24,000 bases of DNA from Candidatus Woesearchaeota archaeon (GTDB lineage: Archaea > Nanobdellota > Nanobdellia > Pacearchaeales > GW2011-AR1). The DNA lies in assembly GCA_964354195.1 (NCBI GenBank), contig CAYGYN010000044.1, positions 10,655-34,654 on the forward strand, given 5' to 3'. The position numbers and the translations under genes were made by a program. The notes under the pieces are model-generated. The model saw only the letters and a list, made by a program, of their open reading frames with translations. It was not told the DNA's origin and made no database searches. This document shows, in pieces, positions 18,398 to 24,000 of the stretch. How positions within the stretch are numbered: position 1 is the stretch's first letter; every line of letters starts with the position of its first letter.

Positions 18398-19249
18398 TCA
18401 CAAGAAATTTATGCAAGTCGCACTGCAGTTCATATACCCGCCGGTGTCTCCTCCGCCATTATAATAGGCATAAACTTTCCATGCACCACTATCTTGATAA
18501 ACTTTGCATTGCCAAATATCGTGCTTGCGGTCTGTGACATCATCATATAATTTAAAGGACTCTTGAGTTATTGCGCAGAAATCCCAATCTCCAGTGCAGT
18601 TAGTTATTGTTGCGCATCCTGAAGCGCAACCATTTGTGGCATTAGCCGAAAATGTTGCTCTAACCGGCGCTGTCCCTCCCCCTCCTCCAGATAATGCACA
18701 ACATTGCACAGCAGATATGTAAAATCCTCCGCAACCGTTTATAGAATATCTATATTTAACCCCAGTTACAACCTTTCCGCTCGGGCAGCTGCTCCATGTT
18801 AGGCTGCTTACTGCTGCATCGCATCCATTGACAGCAACTTCTTGGCAATCAGAAGTAGTTATTGGCCCGCCAGTTCCATCAGCAGGCCACGCATTCCTGC
18901 AATCGCTGCCAATGCAGACTCCTGCTGCTTTCATGAAATTAGTTGTGCTCACATTTCCAATGTTATAATTAATATCGCTCCCACTCTGACTCCATAAACT
19001 TCCTCCGCCTCCAGGAGGCCATGCTGTCCTGCAATCCATTGTTCCTGAGTTGTTCATGCAGAATCCCGCAGCAATAATATTGGTAGGCACTCTGACGCTC
19101 CAGTTCATCTCATCAACCGAATGCCCAAACACAGCAGGATTTGCAGGAACAGAATTATAAGCATAAACCCCCACAAATCCAATCAGAAATAATCCGATTA
19201 TCAATAAAGAAATAAAGTACTTCCTCTCCAAATTAACCTCTATTTTCAC
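18398..19249 (-). CDS. Signal-anchored Cys-rich secreted protein, MKIEVNL-leader family member P1 (GTG start)
   Basis: The leader (V)KIEVNLERKYFISLLIIGLFLIGFVGVYAYNSVPANPAVFGHSVDEMNWS is homologous to P2 and P3. Two C-x(3-8)-C-R-x-AWP motifs, Gly4-5 linkers and 17 Cys. An extra C-terminal Cys-rich domain follows AVQCCAL. Confidence 0.8.
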   Translation of the reverse strand: MKIEVNLERKYFISLLIIGLFLIGFVGVYAYNSVPANPAVFGHSVDEMNWSVRVPTNIIAAGFCMNNSGTMDCRTAWPPGGGGSLWSQSGSDINYNIGNVSTTNFMKAAGVCIGSDCRNAWPADGTGGPITTSDCQEVAVNGCDAAVSSLTWSSCPSGKVVTGVKYRYSINGCGGFYISAVQCCALSGGGGGTAPVRATFSANATNGCASGCATITNCTGDWDFCAITQESFKLYDDVTDRKHDIWQCKVYQDSGAWKVYAYYNGGGDTGGYMNCSATCINFL

Positions 19250-19298
19250 AGAATATCAAAGTATAAATTGTTTTTAATAGTTTTCCCTAATTGATGTC

Positions 19299-20048
19299 TT
19301 AGCTTATAACAATCTTGCAGCAATATCCCCATGCATGCATATAGGAGCCGTCACTCAATCTTCTTGCTCTTACATAATTAGGAGTTACTTCATATTCTGT
19401 ATTTTCCCTTTCATTGTTTGACTTCAGGAAATGGAAGCCTGCAACAGTCTTGCCAATTGCAGAGCAATTTGCAAGTGACCATTGGGGAAGAGGCTTATTC
19501 CCGCCGTCAACCCATGTGCAATTCTGATAAGATAATGTTCCGCCGTTCAGAGAAGGCCAGCTTGTTTGGCAGTTTCCTGAAAGGCAAATTTGTGACGAGT
19601 TTACTGTGCCTGATGTTGCAACAAGGCTTTCTGCTTTAATCCCTCCAGAAACAACAAGTTTTGTGTCAGGGCTTGAAGTGCCAATTCCGATGTTTCCCGT
19701 TGAGCCATTAATCACAATTCTCTCAACATGCGCGACCTCATCCCCGATAATCAAATTACCATTATTATTTGCATAGAAAGAAAACTTCTTGCCGGTGTTT
19801 TCGACAAAAATTCCTGCAAATCCTGTCCCATTTATATGCAATTTTGCCCCAGGAACACGAGTGCCTATTCCCTCGCTCCCGTTTACCAAGATATTTGAAT
19901 TAACAGACTGTCCCCAATCCACTTCATTAGGTGAGTGCCCATAAACCTCTGGGCTGTAAGCATAAACTCCTACAAAACCAACAATAACTAATCCAATTAG
20001 AATGCTAAAAACCAAAAACTTCTTATTCAACTTTACCTCTATTTTCAT
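19299..20048 (-). CDS. Signal-anchored tail-fibre-like repeat protein, MKIEVNL-leader family member P2
   Basis: MKIEVKLNKKFLVFSILIGLVIVGFVGVYAYSPEVYGHSPNEVDW. GIGT repeats (GIGTRVPGAKLHINGT, NIGIGTSSPDTKLVVSGG). ICLSGNCQTSWP motif. Ends GYCCKIVIS. An ATTTAAAT box 30 nt upstream overlaps the dys stop codon. Confidence 0.8.
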   Translation of the reverse strand: MKIEVKLNKKFLVFSILIGLVIVGFVGVYAYSPEVYGHSPNEVDWGQSVNSNILVNGSEGIGTRVPGAKLHINGTGFAGIFVENTGKKFSFYANNNGNLIIGDEVAHVERIVINGSTGNIGIGTSSPDTKLVVSGGIKAESLVATSGTVNSSQICLSGNCQTSWPSLNGGTLSYQNCTWVDGGNKPLPQWSLANCSAIGKTVAGFHFLKSNNERENTEYEVTPNYVRARRLSDGSYMHAWGYCCKIVIS

Positions 20049-20073
20049 GTAATTATGAAGATTTCAAGATTAT

Positions 20074-21120
20074 TTAAATATTGTTCTTAGCAAAAGTCTC
20101 AGCAACAAGCAAAGGAAAAATAATTGTTGCATCAGCAAAAACCTTAACATTATTCACTTCAGCCTTTAACTTGCCCCAAGATATTGCCTCTTCAGGCAAA
20201 GCTCCCGAGTCACTACCATCAAATTCCTGCGAGGTATTGATATATACCGCATAATCAGCCCCGTTCCTAAATATGTTTGCCTCAAGTATCGCATGCTTAA
20301 CCAATCCCGCGCCAAGCACAATAACTCCTGATTTTTCCAAATTAACTGTCTCGTCATTCAACCTCTTGCAATCCTCAGCAATATCAATCTTAAAATCAGG
20401 ATGCTTTGACTTGAAATAATAGATATTGCCTCCAATTGCCCCGTCAGTTATAGCAGGGCAATAAACAGGAATCTTGTTCTTCCATGCCCAATAATAAATG
20501 CTCTTTTCATTGTTTATTTTCTCGCCAAACTTCCAAATCAAGTCCGAGGGCGTGAAAACTTTGCCTATTTTTTTCTGCTCATCATAAAGCTCAAGCAAAA
20601 TAGGCTGTATAAACTCCTCAAGCTTGACGTACAAGTCATTTCCAACAAAAATATTACCAATCCTGTTTATTCCCTTATCATAAAGCTCAGCGCCCTTAGC
20701 ATTAAAACTTCCAAGAATAAAACCGGAAGAACCTGTCAGGTTCTTACGGGACAGCGGAACTTGTTCTGCTGTATCAGCCATGCATTTCATCAAATCCTCC
20801 TCAATTCCACCGGCTGTTGTGACAAGAACATGCACTTTCTTGTGCTTCGCAAGATATCTAATTATGTCCCTATTTCCCGAACTAACCATGTTTGAAGTGT
20901 ATCCAAGGAAAATCTTTGCCTTATTTTCAATCATCTTATTTACTATCTTAGCAGCCTGAGAAAAGTGAGATGCCTGGAATCCAACACTCGCAAAATTTTT
21001 AATAAGTTTCTCATAGTCAACACCGCGGTCAAAATCATAGCCCTCAATCTTGGTTCCCTCTAATTCCATGCTCTTCTTGAGCGAATACGCATCAATCAGC
21101 CGTTTATCGTCCTTTGCCAT
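20074..21120 (-). CDS. dys: Deoxyhypusine synthase
   Basis: 348 aa. FLGYTSNMVSSGNRDIIRYLAKHKKVHVLVTTAGGIEEDLMKC and a C-terminal ISWGK motif region typical of DHS (archaeal/eukaryotic aIF5A modification). Confidence 0.9.
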   Translation of the reverse strand: MAKDDKRLIDAYSLKKSMELEGTKIEGYDFDRGVDYEKLIKNFASVGFQASHFSQAAKIVNKMIENKAKIFLGYTSNMVSSGNRDIIRYLAKHKKVHVLVTTAGGIEEDLMKCMADTAEQVPLSRKNLTGSSGFILGSFNAKGAELYDKGINRIGNIFVGNDLYVKLEEFIQPILLELYDEQKKIGKVFTPSDLIWKFGEKINNEKSIYYWAWKNKIPVYCPAITDGAIGGNIYYFKSKHPDFKIDIAEDCKRLNDETVNLEKSGVIVLGAGLVKHAILEANIFRNGADYAVYINTSQEFDGSDSGALPEEAISWGKLKAEVNNVKVFADATIIFPLLVAETFAKNNI

Positions 21121-23072: not shown

Positions 23073-23810
23073 TTAAACAATGCTTATCTTGCAGCATCTT
23101 ACTTTAATCCAATCAAGATGTGTCTCGCCAGAACTCCCCTGCCCACTTCCGGTTGCAATCTCACCATTGGGGCATAACCACTCCTTTACGCATGCACCGC
23201 ATCTTACTGCCCCGACCCAATGGCAAGTCGTATAATTGATGAAAAGTGTCCCTACACTGCCGCCACCGCCAGCCGGCCATGTTGTTCTGCAATCTGTTCC
23301 AATGCAAACTCCTGCTGATTTAAGATAATTAGTTGTGCTTATGTTTCCGTTCACTTCCAATTTTTCAACAGGGGTTAAAGTCCCAATACCCACATTGCCC
23401 TCGTCTTTCTGCAAGATTACATTTCCCCCGCCAATTCCCGAACTGCTCAAATATAAATTCTGGTATGTTGCTGTACCAAACGCCTTTATTTCATTGCCTG
23501 TAATTGAGATGCTTGGAGCACCTGTTAATCCTTGTTCATGAAATCCAATAAGTGCGCTGTTTACCAGCATGCTCCCATTGACATCCAAGTTTGTTCCAGG
23601 ATTTGATGTTCCAATGCCCATTCTTCCATTAATACTGACATTAGCTTTAATCATCTTGCTCCAATCCATCTCATCAATCGAGTGCCCGAAAACAGCAGGA
23701 TTCGCAGGAATTGAATTATACGCATAAACCCCTACAAATCCAATAAGAATTAATCCAATAAGTAAGCTAAATACCAAGAATTTCTTGTTAAGATTCACCT
23801 CTATTTTCAT
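23073..23810 (-). CDS. Signal-anchored tail-fibre-like repeat protein, MKIEVNL-leader family member P3
   Basis: Start refined to the ATG at 23810 (TTTAAATA 29 nt upstream; the track start is TTG). MKIEVNLNKKFLVFSLLIGLILIGFVGVYAYNSIPANPAVFGHSIDEMDW. Repeats MGIGTSNPGTNLDVNGS and NVGIGTLTPVEKLEVNGN. AGVCIGTDCRTTWPAGGGGS motif. Ends VRCCKISIV. Confidence 0.8.
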   Translation of the reverse strand: MKIEVNLNKKFLVFSLLIGLILIGFVGVYAYNSIPANPAVFGHSIDEMDWSKMIKANVSINGRMGIGTSNPGTNLDVNGSMLVNSALIGFHEQGLTGAPSISITGNEIKAFGTATYQNLYLSSSGIGGGNVILQKDEGNVGIGTLTPVEKLEVNGNISTTNYLKSAGVCIGTDCRTTWPAGGGGSVGTLFINYTTCHWVGAVRCGACVKEWLCPNGEIATGSGQGSSGETHLDWIKVRCCKISIV

Positions 23811-23841
23811 ATCCAAGAAAGACAAGTCTATTATTTAAACT

Positions 23842-24000
23842 TTACAATTTTTTCCAATTCCATGCCAATAATATGAGCAGCATAATCAAGCCTCCAAAGG
23901 CAAACCAAGCCCAGGGACTCAAAGAACCCAATATTGCCTGTGCTTGAACAGTTGCCTGCTGGGTGGCTGCCTGCGCAGGCGCAGCAGCAAGCATTGCTCC
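23842..24000 (-). CDS. Partial CDS (C-terminal 52 codons; begins beyond right edge): protein with C-terminal TM anchor
   Basis: The reverse strand reads ...GAMLAAAPAQAATQQATVQAQAILGSLSPWAWFAFGGLIMLLILLAWNWKKL* with the stop at 23844-23842. Open to the window edge, so absent from the ORF track. Confidence 0.4.
   Translation of the reverse strand, partial: GAMLAAAPAQAATQQATVQAQAILGSLSPWAWFAFGGLIMLLILLAWNWKKL

Follow-up and report, generated by a model that had tools for sequence, protein, structure and literature searches.

A Conserved Leader Followed by Mosaic Heads: Putatively Exported Proteins of Pacearchaeota/Woesearchaeota-Type DPANN Archaea

What holds together a set of small archaeal genes whose products begin alike and end differently? 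The question arises from a 24,000-nt stretch of DNA of a Candidatus Woesearchaeota archaeon (assembly GCA_964354195.1, contig CAYGYN010000044.1, positions 10,655 to 34,654), called the window in its full length, to which all feature coordinates refer. It comprises the last 24 kb of a 34.6-kb contig; the assembly amounts to 0.89 Mb in 108 contigs and is about 83% complete. Three open reading frames (ORFs) of the minus strand, P1, P2 and P3, had been proposed in an initial annotation, made from the sequence alone, to encode a variable surface-receptor family with one invariant leader and diversified heads, and were found at the positions given there (Table 1). In the reading that we favour, with some reserve, they are members of a family, as yet undescribed, of small proteins that DPANN archaea of the Pacearchaeota/Woesearchaeota type export, and in this family a common leader would be followed by mosaic heads with varied binding tips displayed at the cell surface.

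The leaders of P1–P3 follow one pattern, in which M-K-I-E-V-(N/K)-L-x-(K/R)-K is succeeded by 20 hydrophobic residues, V-Y-A-Y, 5–13 further residues and G-H-S-x-x-E-x-x-W. Over the first 45–50 residues the three proteins are 56–76% identical in pairwise alignment. A shared leader, as annotated, is real, but the description as almost identical was too strong. The alignable parts of the heads reach 23–42% identity, or 19–27% when counted over the longer head, so that the leaders are clearly more conserved than the remainder. At the DNA level, repeats join the three leaders at 73–82% identity and the Cys-hairpin module at 76–84%, with 77% between the region of the second P1 hairpin and the hairpin region of P3. 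P1, P2 and P3 are true paralogues that share homologous modules and do not belong to unrelated families. A fourth copy begins on contig C96 of the same assembly, where the contig end cuts it after 49 residues.

To follow the leader beyond the window, eight leaders, taken from the window and from a syntenic contig, were combined into a profile of 53 positions. Among 1.84 billion cluster representatives of a large protein collection, 785 matched at E <= 1e-3 and 114 at E <= 1e-10. In all but a few of the best 150 of the 785 hits the match starts at residues 1–9, the latest start being residue 22, and the matched proteins span 48–455 aa. Residue counts were made on 153 representatives (clusters at 50% identity, P3 numbering), which had been selected by the profile, so that the conservation is partly a matter of ascertainment: G42, H43 and E47 are invariant, A30 occurs in 149, K9 and P38 in 146 each, S44 in 143 and V28 in 137, and residue 31 is aromatic in 152. 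The family leader is about 50 residues long, and its n-region has the consensus MKIEVN-I/L-x-KK. A Pfam scan of 150 members gave no match except Gly_rich_2 in two of them and one weak match to Meg, while P1–P3 had no match in NCBIfam and their heads none in Pfam. Where the sources give a name at all, it is "hypothetical protein", and a literature search revealed no description of the family for DPANN archaea in the collection searched.

The leader-bearing relatives stem from metagenome-assembled genomes labelled Pacearchaeota, Woesearchaeota or Nanoarchaeota. Their distribution is patchy: leaders were found in 17 of 24 genomes of the same GTDB family (E <= 0.01) and in 18 of 400 high-quality genomes sampled across the phylum (E <= 1e-5), all 18 belonging to the same class, with one to five matches per genome. 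Judged from these genome searches, on which the restriction to the lineage rests, the leader is a lineage-specific module of Pacearchaeota/Woesearchaeota-type archaea. One more distant genome contains a tandem array of six leader-bearing ORFs (G401:C4 3531–6909; five were matched by the search), located between the genes of methionyl-tRNA synthetase and a tRNA-binding-domain protein. Its members have ordinary basic n-regions and retain the V-Y-A-Y...G-H-(S/T/N)..E core, and several of the heads open with a C-x-x-G-Q-x-(V/L)...W-x-C motif. Since only the core is kept in the array, we regard the end of the helix together with the putatively extracellular motif as the core of the leader and the MKIEVN n-region as a feature of a subfamily.

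Paralogous leaders within one genome resemble each other more than leaders from the same slot in different genomes. Compared over the first 31 residues, the four paralogues of the syntenic contig share 28–31 identical residues, P1 and the C96 copy 28, and P2 and P3 26, in comparison to at most 22 between genomes. The near-identical leaders nevertheless differ synonymously at 6–11 of 31 codons. For most within-genome pairs the ratio of nonsynonymous to synonymous substitution rates (dN/dS, omega) is 0–0.12, with 0.45 for one pair, at dS values of 0.4–1.1; these figures are rough, each comparison comprising about 20 synonymous sites. Purifying selection on the leader is strong. With dS in the leaders ranging from 0.4 to 1.3, recent gene conversion was rejected as the origin of the leader identity. 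As a disposable signal peptide is not expected to be so constrained, the leader, including its hydrophobic helix, appears to contact something specific. The nature of such a contact was not revealed by the searches made for it. The conservation of the helix did not follow a significant helical periodicity (the observed power was reached in 1,926 of 5,000 shuffles), a dedicated signal peptidase was not indicated among 41 genomes, in which the counts of signal peptidase (SPase) I matches (0–3) do not track the presence of the leader, and no conserved partner gene emerged: genes of a SIMPL-domain protein and of an HTH_20 regulator with a membrane helix (HTH_20-TM) flank the slot only in the closest genera, and distant members occur in unrelated contexts.

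With regard to export, the leader shows the features of a Sec class I signal, namely a basic n-region with K9/K10, 20 hydrophobic residues and the frequent V28 and A30. Similar signal ends, e.g. ...GVYA-F, are found in ordinary secreted proteins of the window, and two homologues of archaeal SPase I are encoded in the genome of about 0.9 Mb (C35:5061–5276 and C79:854–1114). The near-invariant V-x-A before an aromatic residue fits cleavage at least as well as the "signal-anchored" state assumed initially. A class III prepilin site is not present, positions 9–11 being K-K-(Y/H/F) and G, A or S never the common residue there, and with only two cysteines in the first 50 residues of all 153 representatives a lipobox is missing as well. 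NCBIfam gave no archaeosortase, PACE-CTERM or PGF-CTERM match in P1–P3, which end right after the tip domain.

From these features, insertion through Sec with the N-terminus inside and the C-terminus outside can be proposed, directed by the charged n-region and the 20-residue helix. The chain would then either be cut after the alanine, leaving a conserved N-terminal stem of 20 residues, or keep the leader as its membrane anchor. Cleavage and retention appear about equally probable, and prepilin-type processing ranks well below both; the tight constraint on the helix and its likeness within a genome favour retention or a specific partner. Either way the leader would supply a shared export and mounting function, with the invariant G-H-S..E stretch, directly on the outer side of the membrane, as the leading candidate for a mounting element or collar. 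A metal site on a three-fold axis at this position, as in other trimeric fibres, is only a guess.

Leaders with a recurring motif are not without precedent. YSIRK-G/S in Gram-positive cocci and ESPR in autotransporters, including trimeric ones, are motif-bearing Sec signal peptides of surface proteins, in which the n-region motif is common to otherwise different proteins like a family export label; the same holds here. The sequences, however, are unrelated, and the archaeal leader is conserved through the helix and for 20 residues past the predicted cleavage site. Conotoxin superfamilies and the Vsp/Vlp lipoproteins of Mycoplasma are multigene families with a conserved prepro or signal region and fast-diversifying mature parts. 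A constant leader joined to variable Cys-rich parts is shared with them, but in the archaeal family neither a lipobox nor promoter or phase-variation repeats are found, and synonymous sites are free to vary in the leader and not in the conotoxin signal regions.

In contrast to the leader, the heads differ widely. When 154 proteins were compared, the 151 heads of at least 40 residues fell into 50 single-linkage groups, one of which unites 91 heads by common modules; the median head size is about 166 aa. Together with the leader search and the contrast in identity, this clustering bears out the proposal that a single conserved leader is combined with modular heads of diverse kinds. An even number of cysteines is found in 146 of the 153 members, the Cys content amounts to 3.2% compared to about 1% in the neighbouring housekeeping (cytoplasmic) proteins, and P1–P3 contain four to six N-x-S/T sequons each. 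By composition the heads look extracellular and disulfide-rich, and the proteins are probably glycosylated. Recurring modules are the Cys hairpin (73 of 153 members, by pattern), the GIGT module (57 of 153, by profile, with two or more copies in 14), an A-G-x-G-I segment and several kinds of Cys-rich tips.

The modules described for P1–P3 were recovered almost throughout. P2 and P3 contain two GIGT motifs each and P1 none; within this genome the module is confined to P2 and P3. The disulfide-loop motif, written as C-x4-8-C-(R/Q)-(T/N)-x-W-P, occurs once in P2, once in P3 and twice in P1, where the second C..C-R-x-AWP copy had been noticed before, and is followed by a Gly-rich stretch each time. 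A small Cys-rich domain is closed by a CC doublet in all three proteins (aa 243–244 in P2, 239–240 in P3 and, internally, 183–184 in P1). The extra C-terminal domain of P1 had been counted as 8-Cys; seven of the 17 cysteines of this protein are located in it. P1 retains only the first half of the GIGT module (W-S-Q-S-G-S-D-I-N-Y-N-I-G-N-V-S) without the loop; its capping loops have been lost. A sequence search of the PDB with the P2 tip and the C-terminal half of P1 gave nothing significant.

A known structural context for part of the heads is provided by the GIGT motifs. A Bdellovibrio fibre structure (8OND, E = 1.1e-3) was already hit by the family-wide profile, and a profile of the module alone, 50 positions long and based on ten instances from the window and related loci, matched several solved structures: Bd2133 (8OND, E = 7.5e-16), Bd2439 (8OL4, E = 2.5e-9), Bd1334 (8OML and 8ON4, E = 8.6e-7 and 9.9e-6), human MyRF (7DC3, E = 1.2e-3) and Bd3182 (8OJN, E = 0.011). 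The suspected tail-fibre-like character of the repeats is thereby confirmed at the level of solved trimeric fibres. PHROG tail-fibre families (E = 4e-6) and one Thermus phage protein, which matches P3 residues 55–178 (E = 2e-6), add weak matches. On the strength of these profile matches, the GIGT repeats in P2 and P3 are homologues of the motif that forms the capping loop in trimeric β-helix fibres.

The Bdellovibrio proteins belong to the mosaic adhesive trimer (MAT) fibres of Bdellovibrio bacteriovorus (Caulton et al. 2024, PMC10769870). At the surface of the predator they vary by exchange of tips while the N-terminal part stays constant, and a capping loop of the consensus V-G-G/N-pi-x-x-P-x-x-x-L, found at the edges of an intertwined trimeric β-helix, is common to MAT fibres, S74 phage tailspikes and MyRF; archaea go unmentioned in that paper (PMC10769870). 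In Bd3182 a single β-helix is bounded by two capping loops 96 residues apart (PMC10769870). The corresponding spacing is 61 residues in P2 and 76 in P3, and in Bd2133 and Bd1334 the best-matching loop closes the last β-helix just before the tip. Similarly, the second motif of P2 and P3 precedes the hairpin, the Gly hinge and the tip. The likeness is closest to the NS74 subgroup (Bd2133, Bd1334, Bd2439), the capping loop of which is of the V-G-I-G-T-x-x-P-x-x-K-L type. The family logic is also alike, with a conserved N-terminus, swapped tips, several paralogues per genome and a cell-recognising organism. MAT fibres, however, are bacterial and about 1,000 residues long, whereas the archaeal P2 and P3, with about 245 residues, contain one β-helix unit at most and a presumed trimer state, and their Cys-rich tips match no solved structure by sequence. 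They look like one-unit miniatures of the adhesive fibres. S74 tailspikes and fibres, such as the K1F endosialidase and the L-shaped fibre pb1 of T5, and eukaryotic MyRF have the β-helix capping-loop module in common with them as well; the phage fibres are parts of virions, in contrast to P1–P3, which are encoded by chromosomal genes in conserved slots.

Taking the homology as a guide, the two capping loops of P2 and P3 would bracket one short β-helix unit of the homotrimer-forming kind. This would serve as a short trimeric stalk presenting a disulfide-rich tip by way of the stapled hairpin and the Gly hinge, whereas in P1, after loss of the capping loops, two hairpins and two Cys-rich domains would be stacked. 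The most likely role is the display of varied binding tips at the cell surface that recognise a partner cell, host or substrate, which makes P2 and P3 candidate cell-recognition proteins. Diverse ligands are suggested by the fact that the tips change in fixed slots (see below), and for this DPANN archaeon, which is probably symbiotic, the surfaces of partner cells would be the obvious ones. A more far-reaching version is tentative and in our view rather doubtful: a retained helix and a His/Glu collar, perhaps with a three-fold metal, would make the leader a surface-mounting device that trimerises the smallest known tail-fibre-like adhesins with host-recognition tips and co-evolves with a shared partner. 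Such a co-evolution would explain why paralogous leaders are alike despite synonymous drift.

In AlphaFold2 monomer models, computed from 18 sequences for P3 and 32 for P1, the membrane helix at about residues 10–33 (10–32 in P1) is confident. Residues 41–80 of P1, comprising the stem and the first hairpin, show a block-mean predicted local distance difference test (pLDDT) score of about 70–82, and both Cys loops of P1 were modelled as β-hairpins (63–74 and 106–121). Several observations have to be set against a fibre-like surface display. The models as a whole are poor, with a mean pLDDT of 57.7 for P3 and 56.8 for P1 and values of 40–55 between the capping loops of P3, and Foldseek found no match in the PDB with E below 1. 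Poor models would be expected here, as the alignments are shallow and mosaic and the chains probably fold only as trimers. P1–P3 are four times shorter than any characterised MAT fibre, and the β-rich MAT N-terminal domain of about 130 residues is absent, only about 20 conserved residues following the helix; in accordance with this, the module profile matched the module and not the N-terminal parts of MAT proteins, although the solved MAT chains lack that domain. Peptidase_S74 (PF13884) was not found in P1–P3 or in the approximately 83%-complete assembly, which leaves the NS74-type subgroup as the only compatible one in the lack of this chaperone. If the leader is cleaved, no retention device is seen, be it a C-terminal anchor, a lipobox or an archaeosortase signal. 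Finally, the capping-loop module is limited to the 57 representatives mentioned above and is missing in P1, so that a fibre role cannot be extended to the whole family.

The chromosomal positions of the genes are conserved, while the heads encoded there are not. Neighbouring genes were identified by Pfam annotation of their orthologues and 58–87% identity to them and encode a GatE/GatB-type amidotransferase, deoxyhypusine synthase (DHS), undecaprenyl-diphosphate synthase (UPPS) and a DHH phosphoesterase. The order GatE, one or two family genes, DHS, UPPS, DHH, one or two family genes, SIMPL and/or HTH_20 regulator is kept in four genomes of the same genus and in two metagenomic contigs. Between genomes, heads from the same slot are only 11–25% identical over the longer head and often have other module architectures, in contrast to the 58–87% of the flanking genes. 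Only the start of a P2-like gene departs from this: in one genome of the same genus it is 73% identical over the 59 available residues. As judged by this synteny, the family genes hold two long-standing chromosomal slots and are not a mobile element.

Upstream of P3 the assembly forks between positions 23811–24000 of the window and 1–400 of contig C96. The first 125 nt, in the 3' part of the HTH_20-TM regulator gene, are 100% identical; divergence then extends through the gene end, the intergenic region and the leader, and the sequences are unrelated after about residue 32. P3 lies on one branch and the C96 family member, with a leader resembling that of P1, on the other. The fork represents either two strain haplotypes with different genes in one slot or a duplicated slot.

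Could the same data be explained without surface display? Freely secreted, soluble Cys-rich effectors of a toxin-, bacteriocin- or signal-like kind would follow a conotoxin-like logic, the conserved stretch past the cleavage site being a pro-region. The V-x-A before the aromatic residue fits cleavage, no anchor is visible afterwards, the heads are small, Cys-rich and of 50 sequence groups, and two thirds of the members, for which effectors are possible above all, have no fibre modules. We nevertheless consider this explanation rather unlikely, as P2, P3 and the module-bearing members in general carry modules known only from adhesive trimeric fibres, and the strong purifying selection on n-region and helix is unexpected for a leader that is discarded. 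Improbable, too, are pilin-like subunits, from which a prepilin peptidase would remove the 10-residue n-region as a class III signal of non-canonical type, and the helix of which would pack in a filament core. The n-region is as long as such a signal, with KK at its end, the conserved helix varies less within a genome than between genomes, and a Peptidase_A24 homologue is present in the genome. Studied archaeal prepilins, the substrates of PibD and FlaK, require Gly, Ala or Ser at −1, however, and here −1 is Lys, followed by Tyr, Phe or His at +1. Moreover, distant members have ordinary basic n-regions, the conservation of the helix lacks a significant periodicity, pilus-assembly genes do not occur nearby, and a trimeric-fibre module is hard to fit onto a pilus surface.

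The phage similarities could also indicate remnants of integrated viruses, i.e. captured tail-fibre genes without a cellular role. Apart from the weak PHROG matches and the single phage match little speaks for such an origin, which we regard as very improbable: the genes are embedded among essential housekeeping genes, and this arrangement is maintained across genera, other viral genes are missing nearby, the leaders are under purifying selection, and one to six family copies occur in many related genomes. Even less credence is given to programmed variation, either as targets of a diversity-generating retroelement (DGR) or by cassette switching with the leader as recombination handle. DGRs are common in DPANN archaea and the assembly forks exactly upstream of P3, but a reverse transcriptase (RVT_1) was not found in the 83%-complete genome, nor were near-identical template and variable repeats. 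The leaders are 67–85% identical in DNA with many synonymous differences and thus too diverged for frequent homologous exchange, and the divergence at the fork starts upstream of the leader.

Pacearchaeota and Woesearchaeota are abundant, uncultured and assumed to be attached to other cells, and to our knowledge no host-recognition molecule is known for them. The family offers small expressible candidates (mature proteins of about 200 residues), in which a structural module recurs that is also found in the prey-recognition fibres of Bdellovibrio and in receptor-binding proteins of phages. Their tips, which differ between close relatives despite the same chromosomal slots, might be employed as probes by which partner cells or glycans are captured from the source community. 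With the leader, an uncatalogued N-terminal export or mounting signal, the surface repertoire of these archaea could be searched for. Mosaic trimeric adhesive fibres with constant N-termini and motif-bearing signal peptides are already known; new are the archaeal setting, the miniature size, the leader without a curated model, the Cys-rich tips and the arrangement in fixed slots.

Table 1. Family genes of the window with their leaders, modules and TATA-like boxes.
Feature	Residues	Position	Strand	Remarks
P1	283 aa	18398..19249	minus	GTG start; leader, two Cys-stapled hairpins, six-Cys domain ending CC, Gly5 hinge, extra 7-Cys C-terminal domain; capping loop absent
P1 leader	1–50	19100..19249	minus	n-region, hydrophobic helix, V-Y-A|Y, GHS..E..W
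P1 Cys hairpin 1	64–78	19016..19060	minus	C-x8-C-R-T-A-W-P
P1 Cys hairpin 2	112–122	18884..18916	minus	C-x4-C-R-N-A-W-P
P1 TATA-like box		19271..19280	minus	ctattaaaaa; about −31 to −22 from GTG
P2	249 aa	19299..20048	minus	leader, capping loop, short β-helix unit (predicted), capping loop, Cys hairpin, tip domain ending CC
P2 leader	1–45	19914..20048	minus	
P2 capping-loop motif 1	60–70	19839..19871	minus	GIGTRVPGAKL; weaker module-profile match, E = 3.8e-4
P2 capping-loop motif 2	121–131	19656..19688	minus	GIGTSSPDTKL; module-profile match
P2 Cys hairpin	155–165	19554..19586	minus	
P2 TATA-like box		20071..20078	minus	tttaaata; −30 to −23 from ATG
P3	245 aa	23073..23810	minus	from ATG at 23810; architecture as P2; the DHH, UPPS and deoxyhypusine synthase genes lie between it and the P1/P2 pair
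P3 leader	1–50	23661..23810	minus	
P3 capping-loop motif 1	65–75	23586..23618	minus	module-profile match
P3 capping-loop motif 2	141–151	23358..23390	minus	module-profile match
P3 Cys hairpin	169–179	23274..23306	minus	
P3 TATA-like box		23832..23839	minus	tttaaata; −29 to −22 from ATG at 23810
HTH_20-type regulator gene, 3' end		23842..24000	minus	C-terminal membrane helix; cut by contig end; context only

Around the slots some further observations were made. In the closest genera the genes directly upstream of the slot on the DHH side encode a SIMPL-domain protein and a regulator of the ArsR/HTH_20 type that carries a membrane helix at its C-terminus (L005, which is contig C96, 181–771 and 779–1531, both minus strand; L006 2389–3745; L050 1–1101; L051 7219–7962); their order varies between genera, and one contig is without the regulator. 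A LAGLIDADG_3 homing-endonuclease-type ORF of 302 aa, absent from the window, lies between DHH and UPPS in the syntenic metagenomic contig (L006 6360–7268). In one genome of the same genus a family member (G003:C63 1249–1986) carries an internal duplication of 16 residues within the leader, and a second copy on this contig (5402–5719) leaves the frame just after GHSVDE and continues with 100 aa of unrelated sequence. As the DHS and UPPS genes are each split in two there, assembly or sequencing errors are likely.

With regard to expression, a separate TATA-like box precedes nearly every family gene, in the window as in relatives, at about −31 to −22 relative to the start codon, which suggests separate promoters and leaderless or near-leaderless mRNAs. 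For P3 the position of the box favours the ATG at 23810 over the upstream TTG at 23825. In P1 such a predicted mRNA is combined with a GTG start. Leaderless mRNAs usually require AUG, and P1 may therefore be poorly translated. The box of P1 also precedes the same-slot gene of a relative (L051 11665), where the identical promoter box is found together with an ATG start.

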